Virus record (IMG/VR): IMGVR_UViG_3300043446_004500
Span: 89,678-153,677 of that record
Length of the DNA stretch: 64,000 nt
DNA from: a virus
Reading direction: 5' to 3' (one strand)
Both the position numbers and the translations under genes were made by a program. Positions within the stretch are counted from its first letter, which is position 1; every line of letters begins with the position of its first letter. Shown piece by piece: positions 34,283 to 56,432 of the stretch. The notes beneath the pieces were generated by a model. It made no database searches. It was not told where the DNA came from and saw only the letters and a list, made by a program, of their open reading frames with translations.

Positions 34283-37200
34283 ATGAGTTATAACGTAACA
34301 GTAGGATATACTCCTTCTCTCAAAGTTTCAAGAGAAGCAGCTGGTTTGCAAGGAACTCAGGGAACAACCGGTTCTCAAGGAATTGGTGGTTATATTGGTG
34401 CTGATGGATCTCAAGGAACTCAAGGAACTCAAGGGACTCAAGGGACCACAGGATCTCAAGGGGCTCAAGGATCTCAAGGAACTCAAGGAACCACAGGATC
34501 TCAAGGAACACAAGGAACCACAGGATCTCAAGGAACACAAGGAACCACAGGATCTCAAGGAACTCAGGGGACCACAGGATCTCAAGGAACTCAAGGGACT
34601 CAAGGAACACAAGGAACCACAGGATCTCAAGGAACACAAGGAACCACAGGATCTCAAGGAACACAAGGAACCACAGGATCTCAAGGAACACAAGGAACCA
34701 CAGGATCTCAAGGAACACAAGGAACCACAGGATCTCAAGGAACTCAGGGGACCACAGGATCTCAAGGTATTCAAGGAACCACAGGAACCACAGGATCTCA
34801 AGGTATTCAAGGAACCACAGGAACCACAGGATCTCAAGGTATTCAAGGAACCACAGGAACCACAGGATCTCAAGGTATTCAAGGAACCACAGGATCTCAA
34901 GGTATTCAAGGAACCACAGGATCTCAAGGTATTCAAGGAACCACAGGAACCACAGGAACCACAGGATCTCAAGGTGCTACGGGTTCTCAAGGTTCAACAG
35001 GTTCTCAAGGAACACAAGGTATTTACGGTCCAGTAGCAGGTTCTGCTAATCAAGTTGTTTACAAGGATGGATCTAATAATCCAGCTGGATCTGGTAATTT
35101 AACATTTGATGGAACTAATCTTTATGTTGCAGGAAACATAACAGTTGGTGGAACATCTTCATATATTATATCTAATCAACTTAATGTTGCAGATAAAGAT
35201 ATAGTAGTTGGATACACTACTAATGCTTTTGGTGTTGATGTTTCTACAGATACAACTGCAAATACTGGTGGTATTGCAGTTGCTTCTACCATAGGAACTC
35301 CACTAGTTAGCTTTAACTCTGGAGGAGAAATTACTCCAGATACTTATAAGCAACTAATGTGGTTTAAGGCTGGTACTTTTACTGGATTAAACACGGATGC
35401 CTGGGCATTCAACTATGCTCTTGGTATTGGAACTTTACAAATTCCAAATGGAGTAAGACTTGCTGTAGGTGGAATGCAAGTTACTGATTCAACAGTAAGC
35501 ACTCCACAATTGAGTATTTCTGGTCTTTCTACTTTTGGAAATACCATTAAACTTAATGCTGGAATACTTGATTTTTATAGTAATGTAGGCACTGCAGGAT
35601 CAATTTTAATTTCTACTGGTGCTGGAGTTTCTTGGACAACTCCTTATGCTGCCGGATTACAAGGTGTTCAAGGTACACAAGGTCTTCAGGGAACTCAAGG
35701 TACTCAAGGTTCAACAGGTTCTCAAGGAGCCACTGGAACTCAAGGTGCTACAGGTTCTCAAGGTGCTACAGGTTCTCAAGGAACTTTAGGTTCTCAAGGA
35801 GCCACTGGAACTCAAGGTGCTACAGGTTCTCAGGGTGCTACAGGTTCTCAAGGAACTTTAGGTTCTCAAGGAGCCACTGGAACTCAAGGTGCTACAGGTT
35901 CTCAAGGAACTTTAGGTTCTCAAGGAGCCACTGGAACTCAAGGTGCTACAGGTTCTCAAGGTGCTACAGGTTCTCAAGGAACTTTAGGTTCTCAAGGAAC
36001 TTTAGGTTCTCAAGGAACTTTAGGTTCTCAAGGAGCCACTGGATCTCAGGGTTCAACAGGTTCTCAAGGTTCAACAGGTGCTCAAGGAGCCACTGGATCT
36101 CAAGGTTCAACAGGTTCTCAAGGAACTTTAGGTTCTCAAGGAGCCACTGGATCTCAGGGTTCAACAGGTTCTCAAGGTTCAACAGGTGCTCAAGGAGCCA
36201 CTGGATCTCAAGGTTCAACAGGTTCTCAAGGAACTTTAGGTTCTCAAGGAACTTTAGGTTCTCAGGGTTCAACAGGTTCTCAAGGAACCACTGGAACTCA
36301 AGGTACTCAAGGAACTCAAGGTACAACAGGTCCAGTAGCAGGTTCTGCTAATCAAGTCGTTTATAAAGATTCATCTAATAATCCTGCAGGTTCTAATAAT
36401 TTTACTTTTAATGGAACATCAGTTGGCATTGGTACTACAAATCCAACCTCAAAACTTTATGTTGTTGGTGATACTTATATTACTGGTATTTTAACTGCTA
36501 ATAGAATTATAAGTTCTCTTTATGGTGAATTTACTGGTGGATCTGTTTCTGGTTCAAGTATTGTAGGAACTTCACTTTCAATATCTGGAATTTCTACTTT
36601 AGGAACCGTTCAAATTTCTTCTGGAATCGTAACAGCAACTACTGGAGTTGTTACTTATTATGGAGATGGTTCTAAATTATCTGGAATTTCTGCAAGTGCA
36701 GTAGTTGATGGATTTAATACTGGAATTACAAGTTCAGTAAGAATTCTTCCATTATCTTATGAAACTACTGTATTTACATTTCCATCAACAGCAGGAAAAC
36801 AATATGTGATTGAAAGTATTAATGTTGCAAACGTAGATACATCTGTTGGTGTAGGAACAACAGTGAATATTATTGCATCAATTCAAGATTCAACTGCAGA
36901 GCAAACATACATTGCTTATAATGTTCCTGTTGTAAATGGTGGTTTGATTGAACTGTTAAAAAATCCAATGGTTGCTGGTCCAAGTGATGTTATTAAAATG
37001 TGGGCCACAAACTCAGGTTATGTTGGAGTAAATAGTTCAGTTGAAGTTTATATAAACTATAGTGAATATACAAGCACAAGATATATTAGAGATTATTCTT
37101 CTACAGTTTCAATTGCAACAACAGACTTAACAACGGTTTATACATCAACTACTTACCCAACAACAATTCAAAGTATTCACTTAACAAATAGAACAGATAT

Positions 37201-37399
37201 TGGTGATTATCCAGTTTCTGTTACCATTACAAATGGAACATCAACCACATATCTTGCAAGAGACTTAATTATACCAAGATATTCAACTGTTGATATTTTA
37301 GATCGTCCAAAGAGAGTTGAACTTAATGGAACTATTGGTATTAAAGTTGGACAGACATCAACAATTGATGTGATTATTGCCGGTAAGCAAATTGTTTAG
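34283..37399 (+). CDS. Collagen-like fibre protein (two Gly-X-Y tracts, tandem C-terminal beta domains)
   Basis: Long GTQ/GSQ/GTT/GAT triplet tracts, each followed by GPVAGSANQVVYKD.SNNPAGS. Confidence 0.85.
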   Translation: MSYNVTVGYTPSLKVSREAAGLQGTQGTTGSQGIGGYIGADGSQGTQGTQGTQGTTGSQGAQGSQGTQGTTGSQGTQGTTGSQGTQGTTGSQGTQGTTGSQGTQGTQGTQGTTGSQGTQGTTGSQGTQGTTGSQGTQGTTGSQGTQGTTGSQGTQGTTGSQGIQGTTGTTGSQGIQGTTGTTGSQGIQGTTGTTGSQGIQGTTGSQGIQGTTGSQGIQGTTGTTGTTGSQGATGSQGSTGSQGTQGIYGPVAGSANQVVYKDGSNNPAGSGNLTFDGTNLYVAGNITVGGTSSYIISNQLNVADKDIVVGYTTNAFGVDVSTDTTANTGGIAVASTIGTPLVSFNSGGEITPDTYKQLMWFKAGTFTGLNTDAWAFNYALGIGTLQIPNGVRLAVGGMQVTDSTVSTPQLSISGLSTFGNTIKLNAGILDFYSNVGTAGSILISTGAGVSWTTPYAAGLQGVQGTQGLQGTQGTQGSTGSQGATGTQGATGSQGATGSQGTLGSQGATGTQGATGSQGATGSQGTLGSQGATGTQGATGSQGTLGSQGATGTQGATGSQGATGSQGTLGSQGTLGSQGTLGSQGATGSQGSTGSQGSTGAQGATGSQGSTGSQGTLGSQGATGSQGSTGSQGSTGAQGATGSQGSTGSQGTLGSQGTLGSQGSTGSQGTTGTQGTQGTQGTTGPVAGSANQVVYKDSSNNPAGSNNFTFNGTSVGIGTTNPTSKLYVVGDTYITGILTANRIISSLYGEFTGGSVSGSSIVGTSLSISGISTLGTVQISSGIVTATTGVVTYYGDGSKLSGISASAVVDGFNTGITSSVRILPLSYETTVFTFPSTAGKQYVIESINVANVDTSVGVGTTVNIIASIQDSTAEQTYIAYNVPVVNGGLIELLKNPMVAGPSDVIKMWATNSGYVGVNSSVEVYINYSEYTSTRYIRDYSSTVSIATTDLTTVYTSTTYPTTIQSIHLTNRTDIGDYPVSVTITNGTSTTYLARDLIIPRYSTVDILDRPKRVELNGTIGIKVGQTSTIDVIIAGKQIV
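34342..35020 (+). repeat. Collagen-coding tandem 9/27-nt repeats, tract 1
   Basis: Units such as GGATCTCAA GGAACACAA GGAACCACA. Confidence 0.9.
35654..36330 (+). repeat. Collagen-coding tandem repeats, tract 2
   Basis: Units GGTTCTCAA / GGTGCTACA / GGAACTTTA / GGAGCCACT. Confidence 0.9.
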
Positions 37400-37413
37400 T
37401 GAGGTAATAAGAA

Positions 37414-37452
37414 ATGAGTATTCGTGAAGATGTATTTGGATTACCACAATAA
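37414..37452 (+). pseudogene. 12-codon remnant (MSIREDVFGLPQ) of a deleted Kelch-like repeat gene
   Basis: GAGGT SD. N-terminus resembles the RGIFxL leaders of the two propeller genes. 37438-37456 is identical to 42976-42994, the end of the 641-aa gene. Confidence 0.65.
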
Positions 37453-37477
37453 ATACCTCAAACACACATAAAACATT

Positions 37478-38131
37478 ATGAGTCTAATGATTGCTCTCCC
37501 TTGTCATGGGGGAATTGTGAGTGAAAAAACAACAATGAGTTTATTCAATCTAGGCAAACTTCTTGCTAGAAATAATATTTCTCACGGACTTTTAACACAG
37601 GCAAATTCTTCTTTAATTACAATTGGAAGATCTAAGTGTGTTAATTTTTTCTTGAATAATACAGAACACGAATATCTTCTTTTCTTAGACAGTGATATTG
37701 GTTTCAATCCAGAAGATGTATTAAAACTTTTATCTCATCAAGTTGATATTGTTTCTGGTGCTTATCCAATGAAAACGATACCTATTCGGTATTGCATTGA
37801 TATACTGCAACCAGAAGAACGAAAAGGTGATTTAATTAAAATTGGTGGAAATGGAATGGGATTTGTTCTTATTCATCGCAATGTGTTTTTGAATATATCA
37901 CAAAATTTTCCAGAACTTAAATACATTCCACCAACAAATGATAGCAATTATTCACCAACACAAGCAGAGTTAAATAATTCATATCATTATTTTATGGAGC
38001 ACAAAGAAAATAATTCCTTTATGAGTGAGGACAAAAGTTTCTTTTTCCGTGCTAAAATGTTAGGATATGATATATGGTTAGATACATCAATTAAATTGCA
38101 ACACATTGGTTCACATATTTTTACTGAGTAA
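37478..38131 (+). CDS. GT-A fold glycosyltransferase
   Basis: LMIALPC, YLLFLDSDI (DxD), VSGAYP, GMGFVLI.R, SEDKSF, IWLDTSIKLQHIG. Confidence 0.85.
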   Translation: MSLMIALPCHGGIVSEKTTMSLFNLGKLLARNNISHGLLTQANSSLITIGRSKCVNFFLNNTEHEYLLFLDSDIGFNPEDVLKLLSHQVDIVSGAYPMKTIPIRYCIDILQPEERKGDLIKIGGNGMGFVLIHRNVFLNISQNFPELKYIPPTNDSNYSPTQAELNNSYHYFMEHKENNSFMSEDKSFFFRAKMLGYDIWLDTSIKLQHIGSHIFTE

Positions 38132-38134
38132 CTT

Positions 38135-40537
38135 ATGAAATCTGGAGCAAGTGAAAGTTCTTATCATTACCTTTCACAACACTATGTAATTCCCGAAGAT
38201 GTAGAAGTATCACATCTTCCAGAAGTTCTTAAAAAATCAAATAAACCTTACAAGATTTTATGGGGTCAACACGCATATGACCAACCAGTCTTTGTAAATT
38301 TTAATCACAAAGATGTGACTCATATTGTTTCACCATCACATTGGGCAAAAGAGCAACTCATCAAGTATCATAATGTTCCAAAGAATAAAATTACTGTTAT
38401 TCCAACTGGAGTCAGTGATAGTTTTATCTTTAGTGAAAATAAAACAAAGACTTTTATTCATACTTCAATTCCTTATAAAGGTCTAGAACTTCTTCCTTCA
38501 ATTATTCGTCGTATTCATATAAAGCATCCCGATGCAAAGTTCAAAATCTTTTCATCAATGTCTTTGTATGGACCTTCTAATGACCCTTATATTGAATTGT
38601 ATGAAGAACTTAAGACTTTACCAAATGTAGAGTATTCTGCAGCAGTAGATCAAGAGGAACTTGTAAAGCACTATCAAGAATCAGCATTTTTTATTCATCC
38701 TAATATTTGGGAAGAGACCTTCTGTGTTTCAATGACCGAAGCAATGAAGTGTGGTGCATATCCAATTATTACAAACATTGGTGCATTGGAAGAAGTTGCT
38801 GGTGAAAACTTTGCATCTGTTGTACCGATTGATGGTAACAGGACATCAAAAGGATATGAGGTTACTGAGAACTTTCTAAATACATTTGCAGAGGTTTGTT
38901 GCACTGCTCTAGATTATTTTGAGGTAGATAGAACTTATTATAATCAAATCTCTAAATCACTTTCCAATCATATTTCACAAAAGTGTGATTGGAAAAAAGT
39001 TGCAAAACAATGGGAGAAACTCATCAATACTGTTTGTAGTCCTAATGTATTTTTTAGGGACAACAGTGTTGATAAGTCAATTTATGATGAAGTTTATATT
39101 CAAAATGTTTATGAAATTGAAACCCTAAATGAAGATGATGTTATTGTGGATATTGGTTCTCATTGTGGATATTTTTCCAAATTGTGTCTGGATAAAGGAA
39201 GTAAAAATGTAATTTCCTTTGAAGCAGATGAAAGTAACTACCAATGTTATCTAAAAAATCTATCCAAATATCAGGGATGGAAGTGTAACAATATTGCTGT
39301 TTGGAAAAGAACTTGCGATGAAGTTCCTTTTTACACTTATCCTCACAGTGAAAATACAGGACTTAACTCTTTTTACAAAAATCCTTATATGAATTCCTAT
39401 AAGGAAGTGAAAGTTAAAACAATTTCTTTAGATGATATTTTATCTTCTTATAATAAAATTAAACTATTGAAAATTGATGCTGAAGGAAGTGAATATGATA
39501 TTTTGATGAATTCAAAAGAAATTGAAAAAATTGAAAGTATTGTTGGAGAATATCATAATGATATGACCGACAAAACTATGGATGATTTGAAAACATATTT
39601 GACCAATAAAAACTTTATCATATATAAAACAGTTAAATTTAATCAAACTAGTGGATTATTTTTTGCAAAACACAAGTCTAAAATGAATGGAGAAACTATG
39701 ACTACTGAGAATACTGCATTGACTTATCAACCTATTTCAGCACAACAAGCAGTAATGGATGAAGATTATCTTCATAAGGCATTTCAAAATGTAATGAAGT
39801 GGGAAGAGAGTGATAAAGAACTTGCACAAGGCAGAACAAACTTCCAGTTAGAAAAGTTTGCTCTACTTGAAACTCATACACTTCCTGTTGCTTTTGAAAA
39901 TACACTGAAAGCACGAAGGCAAATGGCGGAAGGTTATATGTATAAACTCATTGAGATGAAAGAAAAGGTTCGTGAGTTTGAATACAAGTGGAAAGACCAA
40001 GATAGAACTCAACCAATCTTCTGGGAAGAAAGTGGTCCTGGTGGTGGTTCAAAGAAACTGCATTGGTTTGACCTGGATGAGCTATCACTCACACATTACC
40101 TAAAGTCTTGTGAACTTGAGATTCGTGACCGTCTTCATCAAATGGAGCACTTGGATAAAATTTTAGATAAACTAATGGAACAGAATGGTGGAAAACCAAT
40201 CACCAGAGAGCAATTCCTGGAAGGCGATGCTCTGTATTGGGAAAGAAGATTTGCAGACCAAGCAATGGATGAAATGATTGCTGCACAGACTGGTATTTCC
40301 ATTGGTAACCTTCACAGTATGCGTCGTGCTTCTGCACCTGCAATTGTTGATAAGAGAAATGAACTTCCAGAAGGTTATCTACCATTGAATAAAATGTTGG
40401 ATAGTCCACACGGTAAAATGGAATTCTTGAATGATTTGCAAAGAAAAGTTCTTACAGGTATTCAAGAAGTTACTGGTCAAAATTTGGGTATGATTACTGG
40501 TAGCCCTGAGGAGCAAAGAAAACTGGAAGGTAACTGA
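38135..40537 (+). CDS. Fusion: GT-B (GT4-like) glycosyltransferase + FkbM methyltransferase + uncharacterised helical domain
   Basis: HTSIPYKGL, EETFCVSMTEAMKCG (ExF..E); VDIGSHCG, LLKIDAEGSEYDIL; C-terminal helical domain from M at 39698. Confidence 0.8.
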   Translation: MKSGASESSYHYLSQHYVIPEDVEVSHLPEVLKKSNKPYKILWGQHAYDQPVFVNFNHKDVTHIVSPSHWAKEQLIKYHNVPKNKITVIPTGVSDSFIFSENKTKTFIHTSIPYKGLELLPSIIRRIHIKHPDAKFKIFSSMSLYGPSNDPYIELYEELKTLPNVEYSAAVDQEELVKHYQESAFFIHPNIWEETFCVSMTEAMKCGAYPIITNIGALEEVAGENFASVVPIDGNRTSKGYEVTENFLNTFAEVCCTALDYFEVDRTYYNQISKSLSNHISQKCDWKKVAKQWEKLINTVCSPNVFFRDNSVDKSIYDEVYIQNVYEIETLNEDDVIVDIGSHCGYFSKLCLDKGSKNVISFEADESNYQCYLKNLSKYQGWKCNNIAVWKRTCDEVPFYTYPHSENTGLNSFYKNPYMNSYKEVKVKTISLDDILSSYNKIKLLKIDAEGSEYDILMNSKEIEKIESIVGEYHNDMTDKTMDDLKTYLTNKNFIIYKTVKFNQTSGLFFAKHKSKMNGETMTTENTALTYQPISAQQAVMDEDYLHKAFQNVMKWEESDKELAQGRTNFQLEKFALLETHTLPVAFENTLKARRQMAEGYMYKLIEMKEKVREFEYKWKDQDRTQPIFWEESGPGGGSKKLHWFDLDELSLTHYLKSCELEIRDRLHQMEHLDKILDKLMEQNGGKPITREQFLEGDALYWERRFADQAMDEMIAAQTGISIGNLHSMRRASAPAIVDKRNELPEGYLPLNKMLDSPHGKMEFLNDLQRKVLTGIQEVTGQNLGMITGSPEEQRKLEGN

Positions 40538-40538
40538 G

Positions 40539-41072
40539 GTGAATCAAAAGTTTATGATTATTGATGACTTTTATGATATTGCTCATCAGTATCATCAAAG
40601 TTTCTTTAGTAAACAGTGTATGATAACTGAAGAGACGACTCAAAAACTTTCTTATATTTTGAGTCGTCCTTTGAAAATTGTAGAAGCATTTAATGAAGTT
40701 ACATTTGAGAATAATGAAAATCCAATCACTGCAAATACTGCTTGTGATTGGATTGCTGTAATTTATTTAACATTACCACCTAATTGTGTAATGAAAAAGG
40801 GATTGAGTTTTCATATTCATAAGAAAACAAGACTTGATAATTTTCCAAATGAGTATGCCTGCCAAATTAATGGTTGGCAGAATATGGATGATATTGTAAA
40901 GTCTTTTGATGTGGATAATGAGAATGAATGGGAAGAATATGCAAATGTGTTTGTAAAATATAATCGTTGTGTGTTATTCAAAGCAGATTATTGGCATTCT
41001 TATGGATATGGTTTTGGTAGTGAAATAAATAACTCAATGCTATACCAGAAGTTGTTAATAAAAAATGCCTAG
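40539..41072 (+). CDS. DUF6445-like (2OG-Fe(II) oxygenase-like) protein, HxD motif absent
   Basis: IIDDFY, WIAVIYL, YNRCVLF..WHS; paralog of 43010-43627. Confidence 0.65.
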   Translation: MNQKFMIIDDFYDIAHQYHQSFFSKQCMITEETTQKLSYILSRPLKIVEAFNEVTFENNENPITANTACDWIAVIYLTLPPNCVMKKGLSFHIHKKTRLDNFPNEYACQINGWQNMDDIVKSFDVDNENEWEEYANVFVKYNRCVLFKADYWHSYGYGFGSEINNSMLYQKLLIKNA

Positions 41073-42990
41073 TCCAAGGGGGATATTTCGACTTAAGCAA
41101 GTATATGAAGAGCAATTAAGTAATAATTGGTCAGTAAAAAGTGATGTATGGTTATCAACTCCTCAAGGAACCATAAACTTTGGATCTGGTGCAGTAGCAA
41201 CTCCACAGACTGGTTACTTTGGTGGAGGTAATCCTGGACCATATTCAACAGTAGATCGTATAGATTACTCCAATGATACAGCAACAGCAGTCGCAAAAGG
41301 ACCATTAAGTGTCGGTAGATATTTCTTAGCAGCAACAGGAAACAGTTCTTATGGTTACTTTGGTGGTGGTGCTACAGTATCAACAGTAGACCGTATAGAT
41401 TATGCTAATGATACTGCAACTGCATCACCAAAAGGACCATTGAGTCTTGCTAGATATGGTGTAGTAGCAACAGGTAACAGTTCTTATGGTTACTTTGGTG
41501 GTGGTAACGGACCCGTATCAACAGTAGACCGTATAGATTATGCTAATGATACTGCAACTGCATCACCTAAAGGACCATTGGGTCCTGCCAGAATAAGACC
41601 TGCAGCAACAGGTAATAGTTCTTATGGTTACTTTGGTGGTGGGTTTTTTCCTAGTCCAGGATCAAGAGTAGACCGTATTGATTACTCTAATGATACTGCA
41701 ACAGCATCACCAAAAGGACCATTGAGTCTTGCTAGATATGACTTAGCAGCAACAGGAAACAGTTCTTATGGTTACTTTGGTGGTGGTTATCCTACAGTAT
41801 CAAGAGTAGATCGTATTGATTACTCTAATGATACAGCAACAGCAGTCGCAAAAGGACCATTGAGTGCGGCAAAATATGGTCCAGGTGCAACAGGTAATAG
41901 TTCTTATGGTTACTTTGGTGGTGGTGCTCCTGGTACATATTCGACAGTAGACCGTATTGATTATGCTAATGATACTGCAACAGCATCACCTAAAGGTCCA
42001 TTGAGTGCTGCTAGAAGATATTTCGCAGCATCAAGTGCAAGAGCAAATGCACTTCCATCAACAAATACTACATTACCACCAGCAAATTTCCCAACTCAAA
42101 GTTATCCAGTCACATTCTATGGTTACTTTGGTGGTGGATATGTTTCTAGTTATGTATCAACAGTAGACCGTGTTGATTATGCTAATGATATTGCAACAGC
42201 ATCACCTAAAGGACCATTGAGTCTTGCTAGAGGATACTTAGCAGCAACAGGTAATAGTTCTTATGGATACTTTGGTGGTGGATATCTAGTATCAACAGTA
42301 GACCGTATAAATTATTCTAATGATACTGCAACAGCAGTCGCAAAAGGACCATTGAGTCTTGCTAGATATGGTTTAGCATCAACAGGAAACAGTTCTTATG
42401 GTTACTTTGGTGGTGGTTTTGCTCCTGGTGCAGTATCAACAGTAGATCGTATTGATTATGCTAATGATACAGCAACAGCAGTCGCAAAAGGACCATTGAG
42501 TGCTGCTAGACAATACTTAGCAGCAACAGGTAACAGTTCTTATGGATACTTTGGTGGTGGTGGTGGTGCTGGAGTATCAAGAGTAGATCGTATTGATTAC
42601 TCTAATGATACTGCTACTGCATCACCTAAAGGACCATTGAGTCTTGCTAGATTTGGTTTAATTGCAACAGGTAATAGTTCTTATGGATACTTTGGTGGTG
42701 GTAATCCTGGTCCAGTATCAAGAGTAGACCGTATTGATTATGCTAATGATACCGCAACTGCATCACCAAAAGGACCACTAAGTGCTGCTAGAAGATACTT
42801 AGCAGCAACAGGAAACAGTTCTTATGGTTACTTTGGTGGTGGTTTGAATCCTGGTGGTTATTTTTCAACAGTAGATCGTATTGATTACTCTAATGATACA
42901 GCAACAGCATCTGTAAAAGGACCATTAAGTGCTGCTAGAGGGTATTATCCAGCAGCAACCTCAGCAGCAGCAAACGGATTACCACAATAA
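41065..42990 (+). CDS. Kelch-like repeat protein, 2 x 6-blade propellers
   Basis: 12 repeats of about 47 aa: ATGNSSYGYFGGG-var-STVDRIDY(S/A)NDTATASPKGPLS.AR. Confidence 0.85.
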   Translation: MPSPRGIFRLKQVYEEQLSNNWSVKSDVWLSTPQGTINFGSGAVATPQTGYFGGGNPGPYSTVDRIDYSNDTATAVAKGPLSVGRYFLAATGNSSYGYFGGGATVSTVDRIDYANDTATASPKGPLSLARYGVVATGNSSYGYFGGGNGPVSTVDRIDYANDTATASPKGPLGPARIRPAATGNSSYGYFGGGFFPSPGSRVDRIDYSNDTATASPKGPLSLARYDLAATGNSSYGYFGGGYPTVSRVDRIDYSNDTATAVAKGPLSAAKYGPGATGNSSYGYFGGGAPGTYSTVDRIDYANDTATASPKGPLSAARRYFAASSARANALPSTNTTLPPANFPTQSYPVTFYGYFGGGYVSSYVSTVDRVDYANDIATASPKGPLSLARGYLAATGNSSYGYFGGGYLVSTVDRINYSNDTATAVAKGPLSLARYGLASTGNSSYGYFGGGFAPGAVSTVDRIDYANDTATAVAKGPLSAARQYLAATGNSSYGYFGGGGGAGVSRVDRIDYSNDTATASPKGPLSLARFGLIATGNSSYGYFGGGNPGPVSRVDRIDYANDTATASPKGPLSAARRYLAATGNSSYGYFGGGLNPGGYFSTVDRIDYSNDTATASVKGPLSAARGYYPAATSAAANGLPQ

Positions 42991-43009
42991 ATACTCAAAA
43001 ATCTTTATT

Positions 43010-43627
43010 ATGAAACAAAATATTATTGTTGTTGATGATTTTTATTCAAATCCACAAGAAGTTAGAGATTTTGCTTTAAAGGCAGAATATCCAGAACCAG
43101 AAGATAACTATACATATCCAGGAAGAAACTCAAACGATTCTTATTACTCACAAGATATTCATAAGTCTTTTGAGAATGTGGTCAAGGAACAACTTATTCC
43201 TGCAGATAAGAATGGATATTTTCGCATTTCATTAGCAACAGATTCTCATCGTCAAGATGTTCACGTAGATCCATCTTGGGAATGGGGTGCTGTAATTTAT
43301 ATGTCTTCACCAGAAGATTGTGTTGATGAGGGTGGTACATCATTCTGGAAACATAATGCTCTTCAAAGTGAAAATATTCCAAAAACCGATGAAGAAGCAC
43401 AGTTTTATGGATATCCAACTTATAAAGAATGTTGGTGGACAACTGTATATGGTGATGGTTTAGATCGTTCAAAGTGGACTCGTTACTTTCTGTGCCCGAT
43501 GAGATATAATAGATTAGTATTGTTTCGTACTCATTTATGGCATTCTCATAATTTTAATTTTGGGAACACTCTTGAAAACGGTAGATTAGTTCAGTTATTT
43601 TTCTTTAATCCAGTTAAGGAGTGGTAG
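43010..43627 (+). CDS. DUF6445-like 2OG-Fe(II) oxygenase
   Basis: IVVDDFYSNP, YPG.., HVD, GAVIYM, GGTSFW, YNRLVLF..WHS; start at ATG 43010 after ATAAATA. Confidence 0.75.
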   Translation: MKQNIIVVDDFYSNPQEVRDFALKAEYPEPEDNYTYPGRNSNDSYYSQDIHKSFENVVKEQLIPADKNGYFRISLATDSHRQDVHVDPSWEWGAVIYMSSPEDCVDEGGTSFWKHNALQSENIPKTDEEAQFYGYPTYKECWWTTVYGDGLDRSKWTRYFLCPMRYNRLVLFRTHLWHSHNFNFGNTLENGRLVQLFFFNPVKEW

Positions 43628-43628
43628 A

Positions 43629-49598: not shown

Positions 49599-49616
49599 CT
49601 CAAAACAACTTAGATT

Positions 49617-50279
49617 ATGATTGATAATCCTCTTTCTTATGTTCTCATTCGCCCTAATGTTATCAATCCAGAAGGTCTTCAAGAACTTATAACTCATATC
49701 AAATCTTCACCTGCAGAAGACCTTTCTGTTTTTGATCCAGATAAAACAAATGCAACTGGACAAACATCTTGGATTGTTGATAAGGAAACCAGAGATACTC
49801 AAATTGTTGCTATGGGTAATCTCTATCCAAAGATTGAAGACCTACTGAGAAATGCAGTCAAACATATCATTAATCCTTTCTATCAATGTGAAGTAGATAG
49901 TAGTGAAATACCACAAGTTCTTTCTTATGGTATTGGAGGTCATTATCGTCCTCATATTGATGGAGAAAGCATTTGGGTAACTCCTAGAGGTGAAAAGATT
50001 TGGAAAAAAAGTACAAATAGAGATTTATCTATTGTTTTTTTCTTGAATAATGATTTTGAAGGTGGTGATTTTGTGTTTCCAGATTTAAAAGTAAGAGTAA
50101 GACCAGAACCAGGAATGATGGTATGTTTTCCATCTAATCATCATTATATGCACGGAGTTGAATCAGTCACCAAAGGAAAAAGATATTCAATTGTAACTTG
50201 GGCAACTGTAAAAGGATTTCCATCAATGAATGAGGTTAATCAACAACTTTCACAGGAGTATGGAGTTCCTGTAATATAA
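49617..50279 (+). CDS. Prolyl-4-hydroxylase-like 2OG-Fe(II) oxygenase
   Basis: Y..GGHYRPHID, LSIVFFLNNDFEGG, HGVESVTKGKRYSIVTW. Confidence 0.88.
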   Translation: MIDNPLSYVLIRPNVINPEGLQELITHIKSSPAEDLSVFDPDKTNATGQTSWIVDKETRDTQIVAMGNLYPKIEDLLRNAVKHIINPFYQCEVDSSEIPQVLSYGIGGHYRPHIDGESIWVTPRGEKIWKKSTNRDLSIVFFLNNDFEGGDFVFPDLKVRVRPEPGMMVCFPSNHHYMHGVESVTKGKRYSIVTWATVKGFPSMNEVNQQLSQEYGVPVI

Positions 50280-50282
50280 ATA
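50275..50282 (+). promoter_or_regulatory. Late promoter TATAAATA
   Basis: Exact consensus. Confidence 0.7.
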
Positions 50283-50303
50283 CTCACAAACATTTATAAT
50301 AAA

Positions 50304-50690
50304 ATGCAATATTTAAAGCACTATTGGATTCATGCACACTCAGGCACTTATTGCTGTGAAGATAATCCTGTTGAAAAGAGACATCCAGAAGTAGAATTTC
50401 CTGGTCTTGATGTAAAAATCTGGATGCACGATGAAAATGGAATTGATGTATGCCTCTCTACAGTTCCAGATGGTGTTTCTATTGTGGATGTTATTGATGA
50501 ACACAGTACAAGAAAAGTAGTTCAAAAATTAACTGAGGTAGAATTTAATTCAGTTCAAGATCCACTTCTTGAATCACAAACTCTTCGTCAAGAAGCACAA
50601 CAAGAAACTAATGAAACTTTAAAGGCAGAAAAAGAAGCAGCAGCAGATGCTAAATTTGAAGAAGCACAACAAGCACTTTTTGCTCTTTAA
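50304..50690 (+). CDS. Hypothetical protein (possible fibre assembly chaperone)
   Basis: ORF with its own late promoter, inside the island. Confidence 0.6.
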   Translation: MQYLKHYWIHAHSGTYCCEDNPVEKRHPEVEFPGLDVKIWMHDENGIDVCLSTVPDGVSIVDVIDEHSTRKVVQKLTEVEFNSVQDPLLESQTLRQEAQQETNETLKAEKEAAADAKFEEAQQALFAL

Positions 50691-50765
50691 TGAATAAAAA
50701 ATATGATTATTAAGGTATTGTGGATATTTTAATAAATAAAGAATAGGAAGAATTAATTATTAAAA

Positions 50766-52913
50766 ATGTCTAATAATAGAGAACTTTCTCAGTTTGGTTC
50801 TTTTGTTAATGTTAATGATAATACAACAAACATAGGAATTGCTACTGGTAGTTCTCTAGTTGGTATTGGAACTACATTTCCAACATCAAAATTGGATGTT
50901 ATTGGCGATGTAAAAATATCTGGAGTAACAACTGCATCCGTTTTTAGTGGTAGTGGAATATTATTAACAGATCTACCAAATACAACATTTTTATTCAATT
51001 CAACAGGAATACATACAACATCAAATGTTGGAATTGGAACTACAACAGCATCTTCAACATTAACAGTTCAAGGAAATGCTCTTGTAACAGGAATAGTAAC
51101 TGCTTCATCTTTTTTTGGAAATGGTGCAGGATTAACTGATGTTTTTAGTAGAGTATCAATTTCTTCTGAAGGCACAGTTGTAGGTTCTGCGATTACATCC
51201 TTAGACTATAGAGGTCCTGGAATTTCTTCTATTGTAGCTTCTTCTGGAATAGCAACTATAACGTTTGTTTCAGTTCAAGGAACAACAGGAACTCAAGGTA
51301 CTACAGGAACTCAAGGTGCTACTGGTACTCAAGGTGCTACTGGTACTCAAGGTGCTACTGGTACTCAAGGTATTCAAGGTCGCCAAGGCACTACAGGTAC
51401 TCAAGGTGCTACTGGTACTCAAGGATCTAATGGTGTTCAAGGATCAACGGGTTCTGGTGCTCAAGGTACTACAGGTACTCAAGGTGCATCAGGTACTCAG
51501 GGTGCATCAGGTGCTCAAGGTGCATCAGGAACTTCAGTTCAAGGATCTGCAGGAGCAAGTGTTCAAGGTACTACAGGTACTCAAGGTGCATCAGGTACTC
51601 AAGGCACTACAGGAACTCAAGGTGCATCAGGAACTTCAGTTCAAGGATCTGCAGGAGCAAGTGTTCAAGGAACTACAGGAACTCAGGGTGTCACAGGAAC
51701 TTCAGTTCAAGGGACTACAGGAGCTCAGGGTGCTACAGGAACTCAAGGTACAATAGGAACTTCAGTTCAAGGAACTACAGGAACTCAAGGTGCATCAGGT
51801 ACTCAAGGCACTACAGGAACTCAAGGTGCATCAGGAACTTCAGTTCAAGGTGCCACAGGAACTCAGGGTACTACAGGATCAGGTACTCAAGGTTCTACTG
51901 GTACTCAAGGTGCTACAGGAACTCAAGGTATTCAAGGTCGTCAAGGAACTACAGGTTCTCAAGGAACTACAGGTTCTCAAGGAACTACAGGTACTCAAGG
52001 AACAATAGGAACTCAAGGATTTCAAGGACCACAAGGTGCTACAGGAACACAAGGTGCTACAGGAACTCAAGGAACAACAGGTACTCAAGGTTCTTCAGGG
52101 CCAGGAACAACAATTAACGCAACATCAACAACAACAGATGCATCTTTTTATCCAGTATTTGTTTCTACAATTGGTTCTGCTACAACCGCAAGAGCAGAAA
52201 GTGGATTTATAATAAATCCGGGAGCAAACACTTTTACAATATCTTCCGGAAAACTTGTTGTAGATAGAACTGATAATCCATCTTTAGGAACTTACTTTGA
52301 AGTCACTTCTCCTATTGGAACCAGATTTTCCGTGGTAGAAGGTAATTCGGGATCATCAACACCCTCCGAGGCACTGTCACTTAAACTAGGCGCTAATAGA
52401 AGTTATATATCTGTCGATAAATCTTTTGTCCCTTATGTAGATAATAGCCTTTCATTAGGCGGATCCGGTAGTCTTAATTCCGTAGCATACAATCTTAGAT
52501 GGACTGCAGTTTGGGCAGTTAACGGGACTATTCAAACATCAGACCAAAGAGAAAAAACAAATATTAATACTTCAGATCTTGGATTAAACTTTATAGAAAA
52601 ACTTAATCCAGTATCATATAAATGGATTGTTGGTAAAAATGAAATTGATAAAGATGATATTAATATTATAACTCCAATTCCAGGAAAAAGACTTCATTAT
52701 GGATTATTGGCACAAGAAGTCAAACAGGCATATGAAGAGTGTGGTGCTGCTGATTTTGGTGGTTGGATTTTAACAGATGCAGAGGATCCAGATAGTTCTC
52801 AAGGTTTAAGATATGACCAGTTCATTGCTCCATTGATTAAAGCAGTTCAAGAACAACAGGAGATGATTAATTCACTTAAGCAAGAAATTGAAAATTTGAA
52901 GTCTCAAATATGA
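50766..52913 (+). CDS. Collagen-like tail fibre with C-terminal S74 intramolecular chaperone
   Basis: VGIGTT repeats, Gly-X-Y tract, TSDQREKTNI...LNPVSYKW..HYGLLAQEV..LRYDQFIAPLIKAVQE. Confidence 0.85.
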   Translation: MSNNRELSQFGSFVNVNDNTTNIGIATGSSLVGIGTTFPTSKLDVIGDVKISGVTTASVFSGSGILLTDLPNTTFLFNSTGIHTTSNVGIGTTTASSTLTVQGNALVTGIVTASSFFGNGAGLTDVFSRVSISSEGTVVGSAITSLDYRGPGISSIVASSGIATITFVSVQGTTGTQGTTGTQGATGTQGATGTQGATGTQGIQGRQGTTGTQGATGTQGSNGVQGSTGSGAQGTTGTQGASGTQGASGAQGASGTSVQGSAGASVQGTTGTQGASGTQGTTGTQGASGTSVQGSAGASVQGTTGTQGVTGTSVQGTTGAQGATGTQGTIGTSVQGTTGTQGASGTQGTTGTQGASGTSVQGATGTQGTTGSGTQGSTGTQGATGTQGIQGRQGTTGSQGTTGSQGTTGTQGTIGTQGFQGPQGATGTQGATGTQGTTGTQGSSGPGTTINATSTTTDASFYPVFVSTIGSATTARAESGFIINPGANTFTISSGKLVVDRTDNPSLGTYFEVTSPIGTRFSVVEGNSGSSTPSEALSLKLGANRSYISVDKSFVPYVDNSLSLGGSGSLNSVAYNLRWTAVWAVNGTIQTSDQREKTNINTSDLGLNFIEKLNPVSYKWIVGKNEIDKDDINIITPIPGKRLHYGLLAQEVKQAYEECGAADFGGWILTDAEDPDSSQGLRYDQFIAPLIKAVQEQQEMINSLKQEIENLKSQI
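51278..52100 (+). repeat. Collagen-coding tandem repeats with GTSVQ interruptions
   Basis: GGTACTCAA/GGTGCTACT/GGAACTACA units. Confidence 0.88.
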
Positions 52914-52948
52914 ACTAAATAAGTCAAAGCATTTTTTTGAATTATTTT

Positions 52949-53926
52949 ATGATTAACTTTGTAAAACTTGCATTAGAGAATGGTGGAGTTATTAAACCAC
53001 TTCTTATTAATTCACAAGATCTTTCAGGACCATCACTGACAAATCCATCAGTTCTTGTAGTAGATGGGAAAATTATAGTTAATATTAGAAATGTAAATTA
53101 TACTTTATATCACTCAGAACTCAACAAGTTTGAGCATATGTGGGGTCCTTTGTCATATATTCATCCAGAGAATGATATGCATCTCAGAACTGCAAATTAT
53201 ATTGCAGAACTAGATGAAAACTTGGATATTGTTCACTATTCAAAAATAGATACATCAAAGTTTGATACTTATCAACCACAATGGGAATTTGTTGGGTTGG
53301 AAGATGTTCGTCTCATTAACTGGAACAATAAAATTTATGGAATAGGTGTCAGAAGAGACTTAGACACTATTGGGACTGGAAGAATGGAAATTTCAGAACT
53401 AGAATTTAATGAAAATTCTGTTAAGGAAGTTTCTAGATATCGTATTCCTGGACCACCACCAGATAATGAATACTGTATGAAAAATTGCACTCCAATTGAA
53501 GGAATGCCATTTCATCTTTTAAAGTGGACCAATCCGACTTGCTTAATGGAATTTTTTCCAGAAGGAAAAGAAAGTCAGGCATTTGAAACAACAAAACATA
53601 ATTCAAAAGCAAATGATATGAGAGGTGGTTCTCAAGTCATTCGTTATAAAGATGGTTATCTGACTCTAATTCACGAAACAGATTTATATAATTCAGAACA
53701 AGGAAATAAAAATGCAACCTATCGTCATAGATTCGTATTATGGGACAAAGATTTTAAGAATCAAAGATTTTCTAAGTTATTTTCTTTCTTAAATATGAAA
53801 ATTGAATTCTGCTGTGGAATTGCAGAATATCAAGATGATTATCTAATTACATTTGGAGCACAAGACAACACAGCATATATTCTCAAAGTATCAAAATCTT
53901 TTGTGGAGGACTTTATCAATGAATGA
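52949..53926 (+). CDS. Glycoside hydrolase-like five-blade propeller protein
   Basis: NPSV, GLEDVRL, KNCTP, MRGGSQ, IEFCCG..YLITFGAQD: a pattern seen in GH130/GH43-clan-like viral proteins. Confidence 0.55.
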   Translation: MINFVKLALENGGVIKPLLINSQDLSGPSLTNPSVLVVDGKIIVNIRNVNYTLYHSELNKFEHMWGPLSYIHPENDMHLRTANYIAELDENLDIVHYSKIDTSKFDTYQPQWEFVGLEDVRLINWNNKIYGIGVRRDLDTIGTGRMEISELEFNENSVKEVSRYRIPGPPPDNEYCMKNCTPIEGMPFHLLKWTNPTCLMEFFPEGKESQAFETTKHNSKANDMRGGSQVIRYKDGYLTLIHETDLYNSEQGNKNATYRHRFVLWDKDFKNQRFSKLFSFLNMKIEFCCGIAEYQDDYLITFGAQDNTAYILKVSKSFVEDFINE

Positions 53927-55805
53927 ACTAATTGATTTTTCATTAGACACTGAAAACGGCGAAAAGAATTTTAATCTTGCAGTTTGGTATGAGAGACAAG
54001 GGCATACTGCTCCAGCACATACTTATTACCTAAGAGCAGCAGAAAGAACAGAGGATAAAATTCTTGCCTATGCTGCACTTTTAAGAGCATCCTTTTGTTA
54101 TCGTTCTCAAGGTTCAAGAGATGGAACTGAAAAGATTTTGTTGGAGAATGCGTTAGTGTTTCTTCCAGAAAGACCAGAAGCATATTATTTCCTTTCACTA
54201 TTCTATGAAAGAAAAAAGGAATGGCAAAATTGTCATATCTATGCAAATCTTGGTTTAGAACAATACAAAAGAAAAGTTGAAAAGATTAATATTCCAGAAT
54301 ATCGTGGAAAATACGCACTTATCTTTCAAAAAGCAATTTCTGCTTGGTGGTGGGGAAGAGCAATGGAATCCAGAGAACTTCTTCATTCTCTTGTAGATAA
54401 CTACTGGAATGAAATGGATGAGGGTCACAAAAATTCAGTAGAAGATAATATCACTCGTTTAGGTTCTGGTCCAGAATCTCAAGCATTTCACACTTATACG
54501 AAGCAAGATCACTCAAATTTAAGATATAAATTTTCTGGTTCTTCAAATGTAGAAAGAAACTATTCTCAAGTTTATCAGGATATGTTCATTCTTTCTATGA
54601 CAAATGGAAAGAAAAATGGAACTTTCTTGGAGATTGGTGGAGCTGAACCATTTAAAGGAAATAATACAGCACTTCTTGAAAAAGATTTTGGATGGAGAGG
54701 AGTTTCAATTGAATATGATGAAAAGTTTATTGCAAACTATAGAATCAATAGAACCGCAAAACTTCTGCACGATGATGCCCTTACAGTTGATTATGAAAAA
54801 CTTCTCAAAGATAATTTTGAAGGAAACGTAATTGATTATCTTCAATTAGATATTGAACCAGCAAGAAATACTTACGAGTGTATGTTAAGAGTACCTTTTA
54901 ATAAGTATAAGTTTGCTGTAATTACTTATGAACATGATTACTACGTAGATATTACAAAGTCTTTCCGTGAAAAATCAAGAGAATTTTTGAGATCTAAAGG
55001 ATATGTCTTAGTTGCTAATGATATTTCTCCTGATGGCAAATCAAACTTTGAAGATTGGTGGGTTCATCCAGATTTAGTTGATGCCGATATTCTGCAGAAA
55101 ATGCAACATGTGACAAATCATACTCAAGACTGTAGGGATTATATTTTTGCGAGGATCAATGATACTGAAAAAGTTGAAGGGACTAAAAAGATTGAAGAAA
55201 TAAAAATCAATTTTTTTAACATTAACCAAAACTCAAAATTAACTTCTTGGGCCGTAGATAATTTTTATGAAAATCCAGATGAAATTCGTAAATTTGCTTT
55301 AGAACAAGATTATATTGAAGGTGGTTTTGGTAGAGGATTTATTGGAAGAAGAACAGAAAAGCAATTTTTATTTCCAGGTCTTAAAGAGAGATTTGAAGAG
55401 ATTATGGGAACAAGAATCACCGAATGGGAAAGTCATGGAATGAATGGTAGATTCCAAATTGCTTGGAGTGGAGAACCATTAGTTTATCATTGTGATAGTC
55501 AAAGATGGGCTGGAATGTTATATCTAACACCAGAAGCACCATATCAATGCGGCACTACTTTATATGCTCATAAAAAGACAAGAGCAAGAACTTACCACGA
55601 CCAAGGATGGGATGTTTCTTGGAAAGATGTTCCTGGAGATCCGCACCTGGATAGAACACCTTGGGAACCAGTTGATGTTCTTGGAAATGTCTACAATAGA
55701 CTTGTTATCTTTGATGCAAGTTGTATTCATTCTGCCTCAGAGTATTTTGGAACTGTAAAAGACAATGCGAGACTCTGGCAGATGTTTTTCTTTGATGCGG
55801 AGTAA
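53919..55805 (+). CDS. Fusion: TPR + FkbM-like methyltransferase + DUF6445-like oxygenase
   Basis: PERPEAYYFLS (TPR); YSQVYQD.F..GTFLEIG..NNT.LLE..WRG..IDYLQLDIEP; VDNFYENPD..YHCD..YNRLVIFD..HSA. Confidence 0.75.
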   Translation: MNELIDFSLDTENGEKNFNLAVWYERQGHTAPAHTYYLRAAERTEDKILAYAALLRASFCYRSQGSRDGTEKILLENALVFLPERPEAYYFLSLFYERKKEWQNCHIYANLGLEQYKRKVEKINIPEYRGKYALIFQKAISAWWWGRAMESRELLHSLVDNYWNEMDEGHKNSVEDNITRLGSGPESQAFHTYTKQDHSNLRYKFSGSSNVERNYSQVYQDMFILSMTNGKKNGTFLEIGGAEPFKGNNTALLEKDFGWRGVSIEYDEKFIANYRINRTAKLLHDDALTVDYEKLLKDNFEGNVIDYLQLDIEPARNTYECMLRVPFNKYKFAVITYEHDYYVDITKSFREKSREFLRSKGYVLVANDISPDGKSNFEDWWVHPDLVDADILQKMQHVTNHTQDCRDYIFARINDTEKVEGTKKIEEIKINFFNINQNSKLTSWAVDNFYENPDEIRKFALEQDYIEGGFGRGFIGRRTEKQFLFPGLKERFEEIMGTRITEWESHGMNGRFQIAWSGEPLVYHCDSQRWAGMLYLTPEAPYQCGTTLYAHKKTRARTYHDQGWDVSWKDVPGDPHLDRTPWEPVDVLGNVYNRLVIFDASCIHSASEYFGTVKDNARLWQMFFFDAE

Positions 55806-55808
55806 AAA

Positions 55809-56432
55809 ATGAAGTATATTGAAGATTCTTTTATTTTAAATTATACAGAAAGATTTTGGGCAAATATTGTTTCTCTTTCAGAAGAAACAATGCAATATTT
55901 GTGGGAAGAAATAAAGCAAGCAGAACAAAATCAAGTATCACACAAATCAAATCTTGCAGGCAATATTTCAAGTTCTTTATTGCTTTTTGACAATAATAAA
56001 TTTATGTCAGAAAAATTAATTCCCGAAATTGTTGAAACTCAATACGATTATTATCAAGAAAAAATTCAAAAAGATTTAAATAATCCAGACCTTTCTGGGT
56101 ATTGGGTTAATTTTCAGAAGAAACATGAATTTAATCCAATTCACAATCATGGAGGTGTGATTTCATTCGTAATTTGGATGAAAATTCCTTATAGTTGGGA
56201 AGATGAAATAAAAATTGATATTGTCAAGGACTCAAATACAAAAAATAATATTGGAAATTTTGTATTTGTTTATCCAAAAGACCATTATATTCATACAAAT
56301 GAAATCACTATGAATCCTCAGATGGAAGGAAGAATGGCAATATTTCCATCATATTTCAATCATATGGTTTATCCATTCTATACGAGTGATGAATCCAGAA
56401 TCTCAATATCAGGAAACGTTGAGTTTATGTGA
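55809..56432 (+). CDS. 2OG-Fe(II) oxygenase-like protein
   Basis: WVNFQKKHEFNPIHNH, IFPSYFNHMVYPF, RISISGN. Confidence 0.8.
   Translation: MKYIEDSFILNYTERFWANIVSLSEETMQYLWEEIKQAEQNQVSHKSNLAGNISSSLLLFDNNKFMSEKLIPEIVETQYDYYQEKIQKDLNNPDLSGYWVNFQKKHEFNPIHNHGGVISFVIWMKIPYSWEDEIKIDIVKDSNTKNNIGNFVFVYPKDHYIHTNEITMNPQMEGRMAIFPSYFNHMVYPFYTSDESRISISGNVEFM

Follow-up and report, generated by a model that had tools for sequence, protein, structure and literature searches.

T4-like aquatic phages carry a large hypervariable island within or behind their tail-fiber genes, in which fibers and glycosyltransferases are found among seemingly unrelated genes. In cyano- and pelagimyophages this hypervariable tail-fiber island is known as the host recognition cluster (HRC), and its glycosyltransferases have been read as modifiers of the host O-chain (Zaragoza-Solas et al. 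2020, PMC7029224). Here we analyze such an island at positions 34283–56432 of a 64,000-nucleotide window, by which we mean the whole stretch of DNA under study, namely the last 64 kb of the 153,677-bp IMG/VR virus contig IMGVR_UViG_3300043446_004500 (completeness estimate 73%). Two genes for collagen-like fibers and two genes for long repeat proteins lie there among genes for glycosyltransferases, FkbM-type methyltransferases, a sulfotransferase, and 2-oxoglutarate (2OG) oxygenases. The island is the distal part of the tail-fiber block, the host recognition cluster, in a phage with T4-type late transcription. However, the published account of the HRC (PMC7029224) has no fixed cassettes of enzymes and repeat proteins, no sulfotransferase, no hydroxylases, and no coupling between such genes, all of which are present in this phage. 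The best-supported reading, to which we assign a probability of about one half, is that the phage modifies its own virion proteins, fibers and repeat proteins alike, before assembly. An earlier note on this DNA had listed most of these genes and proposed a phage-encoded pathway that decorates its own fibers; the observation itself is confirmed, and the interpretation is partly supported.

A related combination was predicted in bacteria by Iyer, Abhiman, de Souza, and Aravind (2010, PMC2938197), who described operons of 2OG dioxygenases and sulfotransferases that would "hydroxylate then sulfate" collagen-like or tail-collar proteins. The likeness lies in 2OG hydroxylases, methyltransferase domains, and sulfotransferases that accompany glycine-rich collagen-like or phage-fiber-like proteins as proposed substrates. 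However, those operons are bacterial, are computational predictions, and often include a synthetase for 3′-phosphoadenosine 5′-phosphosulfate (PAPS), which was not found here, whereas this phage adds glycosyltransferases and repeat proteins. Mycobacteriophages glycosylate their own virions, according to Freeman et al. 2023 as cited in PMC12801897. They share with the capsid or fibril glycans of chloroviruses and mimivirus, and with A197 of Sulfolobus turreted icosahedral virus (STIV), the use of viral glycosyltransferases to decorate the virus's own structural proteins. Those systems are chemically proven, whereas tailoring in this phage is predicted from its genes; none of them, however, joins prolyl-hydroxylase-like enzymes and sulfo-, methyl-, and carbamoyltransferases with hypervariable repeat proteins. 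Chloroviruses also have fusions of glycosyltransferases with methyltransferases, a possible parallel to the GT4-FkbM fusion found here. A bacterial parallel is BclA of the Bacillus exosporium, a Thr-rich collagen-like glycoprotein that is O-glycosylated on Thr by enzymes encoded nearby. Its triplets are GPT, whereas those found here are the proline-free GTQ, GSQ, and GTT, and many phage fibers with such triplets have no glycosyltransferases nearby.

In the literature, we found no cyanophage study that describes or tests a fixed kit in which such enzymes accompany repeat proteins. The earlier note did not know this as a characterized cyanophage system, but the island is a published HRC, and Iyer et al. 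2010 predicted related operons. The HRC island, the hydroxylate-then-sulfate prediction, and virion glycosylation elsewhere are already known.

Linkage and predicted late expression of enzymes and repeat proteins

Every gene of the island lies on the + strand. Its features are as follows.

34283–37399, + strand: collagen-like fiber 1, 1038 aa (PF01391 E 9e-68; tail-fiber PHROGs)
37415–37453, + strand: 12-codon remnant (MSIREDVFGLPQ*), a type-3 leader fused directly to the conserved C-terminal end of a repeat protein
37448–37455, + strand: AATAAATA box resembling a late promoter, 30 nt upstream of the GT-A start
37478–38131, + strand: GT-A-type glycosyltransferase, 217 aa, LDSD motif (PDB 2c0n E 1.8e-4; phrog_1574 E 2e-32)
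38135–40537, + strand: 800-aa fusion of GT4 (GT-B), FkbM, and a helical domain of ~290 aa (PF00534 E 4e-15; PF05050 E 3e-14; TIGR01444 E 2e-22)
40539–41072, + strand: 177-aa DUF6445-like 2OG-fold protein (phrog_1644 E 2e-7)
41065–42990, + strand: repeat protein, 641 aa, type-1 leader, 2 modules, end ..ANGLPQ (phrog_19111 E 4e-138)
43010–43627, + strand: DUF6445 2OG oxygenase, 205 aa, H-V-D...H and Arg kept in the alignment (PF20043 E 3e-15)
43629–44111, + strand: 160-aa protein, possibly ParB/Srx-like (Atlas lead only)
44102–44938, + strand: PAPS-type sulfotransferase, 278 aa (PF13469 E 4e-19)
44928–49595, + strand: repeat protein, 1555 aa, type-2 leader, 5 modules (6-6-6-6-6) (phrog_19111 E 4e-297)
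49617–50279, + strand: prolyl-hydroxylase-like (P4H-like) 2OG oxygenase, 220 aa (PF13640 E 5e-16)
50304–50690, + strand: 128-aa protein, present in most relatives, always behind the hydroxylase gene (no family hit)
50766–52913, + strand: collagen-like fiber 2, 715 aa (PF01391 E 1e-27; PF13884 E 2e-13)
52949–53926, + strand: GH130/GT108-fold protein (β-mannoside phosphorylase or synthase type), 325 aa (structure model with Foldseek; Atlas lead)
53919–55805, + strand: 628-aa fusion with TPR-like N-terminus, FkbM-like middle, and DUF6445 2OG oxygenase (PF20043 E 1e-5; TPR_2 E 0.008)
55809–56432, + strand: 2OG-FeII_Oxy_5 oxygenase, 207 aa (PF13759 E 1e-12; phrog_81 E 4e-30)

Related loci were collected from two anchors, yielding 17 IMG/VR loci through the sulfotransferase and 43 loci of at least 12 kb through the repeat proteins, about 60 related contigs altogether. 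In IMG/VR as a whole, roughly 400 stretches encoding repeat proteins were seen. Repeat-protein genes adjoin the sulfotransferase gene in 17/17 of the former loci, and each of the latter 43 has one or more of six enzyme families, with at least four in 35/43 and all six in 18/43. Linkage is thus found in both directions; a lack of co-occurrence, which the earlier note had named as grounds for giving up its proposal, was not observed. Among the 17 loci the genes fall into three cassettes of permuted order. In the first, GT-A, GT-B, and the 177-aa 2OG-fold protein are followed by a repeat protein; in the second, a repeat protein comes after DUF6445 and the sulfotransferase, between which some loci have the 160-aa gene; the third consists of the P4H-like and 128-aa genes, in some loci with a carbamoyltransferase between them. 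In two distant relatives, L150 and L127 (35–47% identity), the genes still run repeat protein, GT-B, helical domain, repeat protein, P4H, p128-like, GH130-like, and DUF6445. The GH130-like gene and the 628-aa-type fusion form a pair found in ~120 loci, adjacent in 60/65 and 58/59.

The kit varies between phages, since some relatives carry further enzymes. In L012 (15309–16718; also in L014, L019, and L020) a NodU/CmcH-type O-carbamoyltransferase (PF16861 E 1e-65) lies between the P4H-like and 128-aa genes, and L009 has a 305-aa open reading frame (ORF) with a weak match to RXYLT1_C. Judging by its gene content, the freshwater Kyanoviridae myovirus S-SRM01 (L023, NC_070963, 220777–240842) is an independent analogue with an unrelated propeller type. 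Behind its distal tail-fiber gene stand three RCC1-type propeller proteins with near-perfect repeats, their genes interleaved with those for a TPR protein, a 2OG oxygenase, a sulfotransferase (34% identical), a glycosyltransferase, and an epimerase.

These patterns bear on the possibility that the association is merely historical, unrelated cargo having gathered in a recombination hotspot and been shuffled through the DNA repeats of collagens and blades. The permuted cassette order, the gain and loss of repeat-protein genes by recombination, and contigs from four freshwater studies that break inside the repeats all fit such a history. However, repeat proteins are accompanied by these same families of enzymes even in relatives at 35–47% identity, and in S-SRM01 the enzyme families accompany an unrelated propeller type; moreover, gene overlaps are conserved, and the enzyme stretches hardly differ between those four studies. 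We consider this explanation very improbable.

The earlier note had proposed that (T/A)ATAAATA-type late promoters drive most of these blocks, so that the enzymes would be expressed together with the structural genes. By count, WATAAATA is not over-represented (11 observed vs 18 expected). Genome-wide, 16/17 copies of TATAAATA and 15/22 copies of AATAAATA (31/39) lie 15–70 nt ahead of an ORF start on the same strand, against an expectation of 3%, and the contig encodes homologues of the T4 late-transcription factors gp33 (E 1e-27) and gp55 (E 2e-29), as a T4-type late promoter would require. Because the placement is strongly non-random and both factors are encoded, we regard (T/A)ATAAATA, on sequence grounds, as a real late-promoter signal. 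Seven copies lie in the island, starting at 37448, 41024, 42986, 44873, 49591, 50275, and 50731, and stand 24–55 nt before the starts of the genes for GT-A, both repeat proteins, DUF6445, the P4H-like enzyme, the 128-aa protein, and fiber 2. The start of the DUF6445 gene was revised from 42929 to 43010, because its relatives are 205 aa long and the AATAAATA copy at 42986 lies 24 nt upstream; this copy comes in addition to the 15 counted above. In relatives, the strict WATAAATA box precedes the 128-aa gene in 13/14, the P4H-like gene in 8/14, the DUF6445 gene in 4/15, and the GT-A gene in 2/9.

The junctions between genes are likewise conserved. GT-A and GT-B are separated by +2 nt, GT-B and the 177-aa gene by ~0, and DUF6445 and the sulfotransferase by 0. 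In 8/9 relatives, as here, the last 8 nt of the 177-aa gene are also the first 8 nt of the repeat-protein gene, and the sulfotransferase gene overlaps the next repeat-protein gene by 10–17 nt (usually 14) in 16/17. At their conserved 3′ ends (..CCACAATAAATA; ..GGATTACCACAATAAATA), repeat-protein genes combine the stop codon with the box for the next enzyme cassette. At the two identical stretches 42976–42994 and 37438–37456, the last codons read GGA TTA CCA CAA TAA ATA, with the stop codon inside the AATAAATA box. Since the stop codon lies within the box, gene end and next promoter would move together in recombination. The late boxes and the conserved stop/start overlaps or 0–3 nt gaps bear out the proposed joint expression, and support the prediction that the enzyme genes belong to late, translationally coupled operons with the fiber and repeat-protein genes.

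Repeat proteins and fibers as candidate substrates

Both repeat proteins consist of a leader of ~30 residues and modules of exactly six repeats of 46–47 residues, joined by linkers of ~25 residues, for totals of 12 repeats in the 641-aa and 30 in the 1555-aa protein. The motif, GYFGGG...VDRIDY...GPLS.AR...AATGN, has the GG doublet and the conserved aromatic and Arg pattern of Kelch repeats and falls within their length range (44–56 aa). Phmmer searches of the PDB matched SAKe6, a designed Kelch propeller (E 4e-7), and the Kelch domain of IVNS1ABP (E 0.03). With these six-bladed propellers the repeat proteins share the repeat length, the doublet, the aromatic/Arg pattern, and the constant number of six. 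A Kelch-domain protein, CBB_552, is a proven virion part of phage vB_PcaM_CBB (PMC5259590). However, no curated Pfam Kelch model matched single modules or whole proteins up to E 10, and the AlphaFold2 (AF2) model of the whole 641-aa protein, made from a 16-row alignment, did not close into propellers. Its predicted local distance difference test score (pLDDT) was 62.6, Foldseek found no match to it at E ≤0.001, and its best VIA-wide matches were β-solenoids (Z 13–15), with no propeller. The Kelch-like call in the earlier note therefore holds for the motif and the SAKe6 match, but neither Pfam nor the weak, solenoid-like AF2 model bears it out. A β-solenoid fold was considered and not accepted, as the five AF2 models differ among themselves and every module counts exactly six repeats. 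Homologues hold 2, 3, 4, 5, or 6 modules, each of which still sums to six when degenerate blades are included. Since the repeats are so strictly quantized into sixes, closed six-bladed units are favored, and the proteins are likely to be strings of six-bladed Kelch-like propellers. Strings of 2–6 modules with position-specific leaders are undescribed for Kelch proteins.

Three such leaders occur: type 1 after the 177-aa 2OG-fold protein, type 2 after the sulfotransferase, and type 3 after the fiber gene. A full repeat-protein gene with a type-3 leader stands behind the fiber gene in L006, L008, L009, and L019. Because these relatives keep the full gene and the remnant at 37415–37453 joins the type-3 leader to the C-terminal end, a whole multi-kb type-3 repeat-protein gene was cleanly deleted at this place. 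In each blade, the variable loop after GGG contains 20% Pro, vs 5.6% overall, and at least one Pro is present in 25/34 loops here and in 176/208 in relatives (74–85%). Tyr sulfation of DRIDY and N-glycosylation of NDT/NSS sequons were considered and set aside, as the residues concerned coincide with core structural positions of a Kelch repeat. Three things lead us to infer that the repeat proteins are virion parts: where their genes lie, the promoters in front of them, and the CBB_552 precedent.

Both collagen-like genes named in the earlier note are confirmed, with PF01391 scores of 224 bits for fiber 1 and 96 bits for fiber 2 (cut-off 27.2). Fiber 1 is an internal tandem duplication in which ~76 GXY triplets, a PVAGSANQVVYKD motif, and a globular domain occur twice. 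Its runs hold 77 and 76 triplets, chiefly GTT/GSQ/GTQ/GAT, with 1 Pro per run. A PVAGSANQVVYKD(G/S)SNNPAGS motif closes both runs, ahead of the globular domain. Fiber 2 has shorter, interrupted runs (20–25 triplets) and a C-terminal Peptidase_S74 domain, a self-cleaving intramolecular chaperone (E 2e-13); it is missing from the equivalent place in the 17 closest relatives. A collagen triple helix would draw its stability from Pro/Hyp or from glycosylated Thr; in both fibers, T, S, A, and Q fill positions X and Y, and Pro is nearly absent. An arrangement with propeller heads docked on collagen stalks was not accepted: adjacency is its sole support, and fiber 2, with its own C-terminal chaperone, resembles a self-contained fiber. 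The collagen-like fibers, predicted to be trimeric, and the bead-strings with proline-rich variable loops are probably host-binding appendages.

Tailoring enzymes and their possible targets

All five 2OG-oxygenase-like domains listed in the earlier note are present, but one of them, the 177-aa protein, is catalytically dead. The 205-aa DUF6445 protein, the P4H-like protein, and the C-terminal part of the 628-aa fusion (H-C-D...H in the alignment) retain the HxD/E...H facial triad and the basic residue that binds 2OG; the fifth, the PF13759 oxygenase, was recognized by its domain match and is rare in related loci. The P4H-like protein scores 60 bits against PF13640 (cut-off 27) and is single-copy in the contig. 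Its nearest PDB entries are prolyl 3-hydroxylase 1 (P3H1; E 3e-9) and the prolyl 4-hydroxylase of Bacillus anthracis (E 4e-6), which places it, by similarity, nearest to the collagen prolyl 3- and 4-hydroxylases, enzymes that modify proteins. In the 177-aa protein, T-A-N replaces H-x-D and Met replaces the 2OG-binding Arg, invariantly in the alignments of 10/10 relatives, which marks a conserved but inactive 2OG fold. Because the metal and 2OG ligands are lost and its gene overlaps the repeat-protein start by 8 nt, it may be a chaperone or adaptor. A complex prediction for this protein with residues 1–330 of the 641-aa repeat protein scored 0.00, which is no evidence either way. The ParB/Srx-like call for the 160-aa protein is backed by an Atlas (language-model) lead only, a neighboring cluster, 38% of whose members carry PF02195, but not by any match in Pfam, NCBIfam, PHROG, or PDB; the protein is confined to the closest relatives, L004–L007.

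These oxygenases could, in principle, make or alter a small molecule together with the transferases, or modulate the 2-oxoglutarate/nitrogen status of the host, with no tie to structural proteins. Tandem dioxygenase arrays of cyanophages have indeed been read as secondary-metabolite pathways (PMC2938197), and cyanophage 2OG oxygenases have been proposed to be linked to 2OG and NtcA signaling (Sullivan et al. 2010, PMC3037559). However, the island holds no gene for a nonribosomal peptide synthetase, polyketide synthase, halogenase, or precursor peptide; the predicted late promoters that drive expression lie inside structural operons; and a dead yet conserved 2OG-fold protein coupled to a repeat-protein gene fits binding, not metabolism. 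The secondary-metabolite and 2OG-signaling readings fit the data least, and we consider them improbable.

Among the transferases, the GT-A protein is nearest to the viral GT-A enzyme STIV A197 (PDB 2c0n, over residues 27–192), which counts in favor of virion tailoring. This match and the LDSD motif agree with the GT-A assignment made earlier, but PF00535 (E 0.016, 15.6 bits) stays below its cut-off of 23.3. The GT-B and first FkbM domains are present as claimed, with 56.3 bits against PF00534 (cut-off 26.4) and 80.5 bits against TIGR01444 (cut-off 37.7). The helical C-terminal domain of this fusion (39650–40537 in the window) is matched at 40% identity, in L150 (3270–4109) and L127 (2769–3608), by a separate ORF of 279 aa that follows the GT-B gene; in closer relatives whose GT-B protein is 584 aa long, the C-terminal part differs. 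The second FkbM domain, the middle of the 628-aa fusion, is recognized through its homologues, 10/17 of which match PF05050 (best E 2e-5), but the copy in the window matches no FkbM model. The TPR domain of the same fusion was found at E 0.003–0.008, weak values for the claim that it is present.

The sulfotransferase named in the earlier note is confirmed: it scores 70.4 bits against PF13469 (cut-off 27), and its 5′-PSB loop PRSGST is invariant in 8 homologues. The best PDB match of its profile is TPST1/2 (E 1e-8); the matches to TPST and to NoeE cover the PAPS-binding motifs only. No adenosine 5′-phosphosulfate kinase was found in the contig at its completeness of 73%. The glycosidase-like protein has, by its structure model, a GH130/GT108 fold. 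Its AF2 model (pLDDT 79, predicted TM-score 0.85) matches the five-bladed propeller 5b0p in Foldseek (E 1.6e-9, TM 0.60), as well as 9erg and the Leishmania MPT enzymes; PF04041 reached only E 0.027. Sequence searches of the PDB returned nothing useful for the 628-aa fusion, its middle part, or the 160-aa protein, nor for a 329-aa protein, either alone or as a profile. No export signals are evident in the tailoring enzymes.

These enzyme classes would suit the tailoring of glycans just as well and could also act outside the virion. They may remodel host envelope glycans late in infection, be it the O-chain of lipopolysaccharide (LPS), exopolysaccharide, or the S-layer, so as to block superinfection or reduce the sticking of progeny to debris; adjacency to the fibers would then reflect a shared hypervariable island. 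Such a role in host O-chain or cell-wall modification is the published reading for the glycosyltransferases of the HRC (PMC7029224) and of large cyanophages (PMC12801897). It agrees with the presence of GT4, FkbM, a NodU-like carbamoyltransferase, and a sulfotransferase, all classical glycan-tailoring classes, with the frequent occurrence of the GH130-like/TPR-methyltransferase-2OG pair without repeat proteins, and with nucleotide-sugar epimerases in the same neighborhood in S-SRM01 and ACG-2014f. However, the island lacks genes for nucleotide-sugar synthesis, flippase, polymerase, or ligase, and the only epimerase of the contig lies ~60 kb away. Moreover, this explanation leaves unexplained the conserved translational coupling to repeat-protein genes, the prolyl-hydroxylase-like enzyme, and the presence of enzymes at every repeat-protein locus, and we find it rather doubtful. 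The epimerase is NAD-dependent (PF01370, E 2e-38) and is encoded outside the window, at G000:C1:60279–61082, upstream of the island.

In the modification of virion proteins that we favor, the interleaved enzymes would act in the infected cell on phage proteins before assembly. The P4H-like enzyme and the active DUF6445 and PF13759 oxygenases would first hydroxylate residues that are exposed on the repeat proteins, and perhaps on the fibers. Prime candidate sites for the P4H-like enzyme would be the prolines of the loop after GGG, a plausible target because the loop is 20% proline and most loops contain Pro; the collagen triplets, by comparison, cannot be classical substrates of such an enzyme, because the GXY runs are nearly proline-free. 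The GT-A, GT4, and GH130/GT108-like enzymes would then build short glycans on the new hydroxyls or on Ser/Thr, with the Thr/Ser-rich collagen triplets as possible sites. Finally, the FkbM methyltransferases and the sulfotransferase would cap sugars or hydroxyls, as would the NodU-like carbamoyltransferase in relatives. A more specific version combines phage-run hydroxyproline and Ser/Thr O-glycosylation of propeller-adhesin loops and collagen fibers with methyl, sulfate, or carbamoyl caps, takes the dead 2OG protein as a chaperone or targeting subunit, and has recognition or virion protection depend on phage-made glycans; in this full form we put it forward tentatively, as possible although unlikely.

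Several observations weigh against virion tailoring. The enzymes are still present where a repeat-protein gene has been deleted, and the GH130-like/TPR-methyltransferase-2OG pair is widespread without repeat proteins, which only 13/59 of its loci have. GT4, FkbM, NodU-like, and NoeE-like enzymes typically tailor polysaccharides or Nod factors, and the GT-A family sits among replication genes in Caulobacter phage Cr30. The island is a hypervariable region that gathers varied cargo, for which the authors of earlier studies favor a role in host O-chain modification (PMC7029224; PMC12801897). As to the substrates, collagen-like genes occur in only ~40% of related loci, the near absence of proline from the GXY runs excludes classical collagen hydroxylation, and Pro-rich loops are common in any protein. 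The lack of a Pfam Kelch match and the disagreement among the AF2 models count on the same side, and in the literature we found, for this lineage, neither a virion proteome nor an observed modification of a virion protein.

Genome setting and biological meaning

Upstream of 34283 lie tail and baseplate genes, and a 1898-aa tail fiber (phrog_529) and a 1809-aa virion structural protein are encoded immediately 5′ of the island, a location that counts in favor of virion tailoring. Downstream of 56432 are small ORFs, homing endonucleases, and a dCMP deaminase. From this gene content, 34283–56432 forms the distal portion of the late structural block. Two genes stand just outside its upstream boundary.

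33273–33911, + strand: 212-aa fiber-like protein that opens a late operon (weak similarity to fiber proteins of relatives; no family hit)
33938–34270, + strand: 110-aa tail-fiber-assembly-like protein (phrog_1084 E 3e-27; phrog_3304 "L-shaped tail fiber protein assembly" E 6e-25)

The first of these has a promoter-like box, TATAAATA at 33235. Further upstream in the window, at 21424–22050, a Mom-like DNA modification protein (phrog_1384, E 2e-29) with HNH-like similarity is encoded between baseplate and tail-fiber genes. The contig also encodes psbA. Its nearest cultured relative is S-SKS1, a 208-kb Synechococcus phage with 40–46% amino-acid identity, which was the only match in a megablast search against phage records (3% cover). 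By these comparisons, the phage is S-SKS1-like and not a Kyanoviridae myovirus. S-SKS1, the nearest isolate, is marine; DNA near identical to window positions 37400–44950 was found in freshwater metagenome runs from at least six studies, and we therefore take the phage to be a freshwater cyanophage.

Receptor-binding proteins set which cyanobacteria a phage kills, and phages of this kind are abundant in freshwater and marine settings. If the proposed tailoring is true, their host range could not be read from protein sequence alone. It would constitute the first multi-step post-translational pathway, comprising hydroxylation, glycosylation, methylation, and sulfation, for phage adhesins, and the "2OG oxygenase" and "LPS" genes of cyanophages, long taken as metabolic or host-surface functions, would need a new reading. 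As the cultured relative S-SKS1 holds part of the kit, the idea is directly testable.

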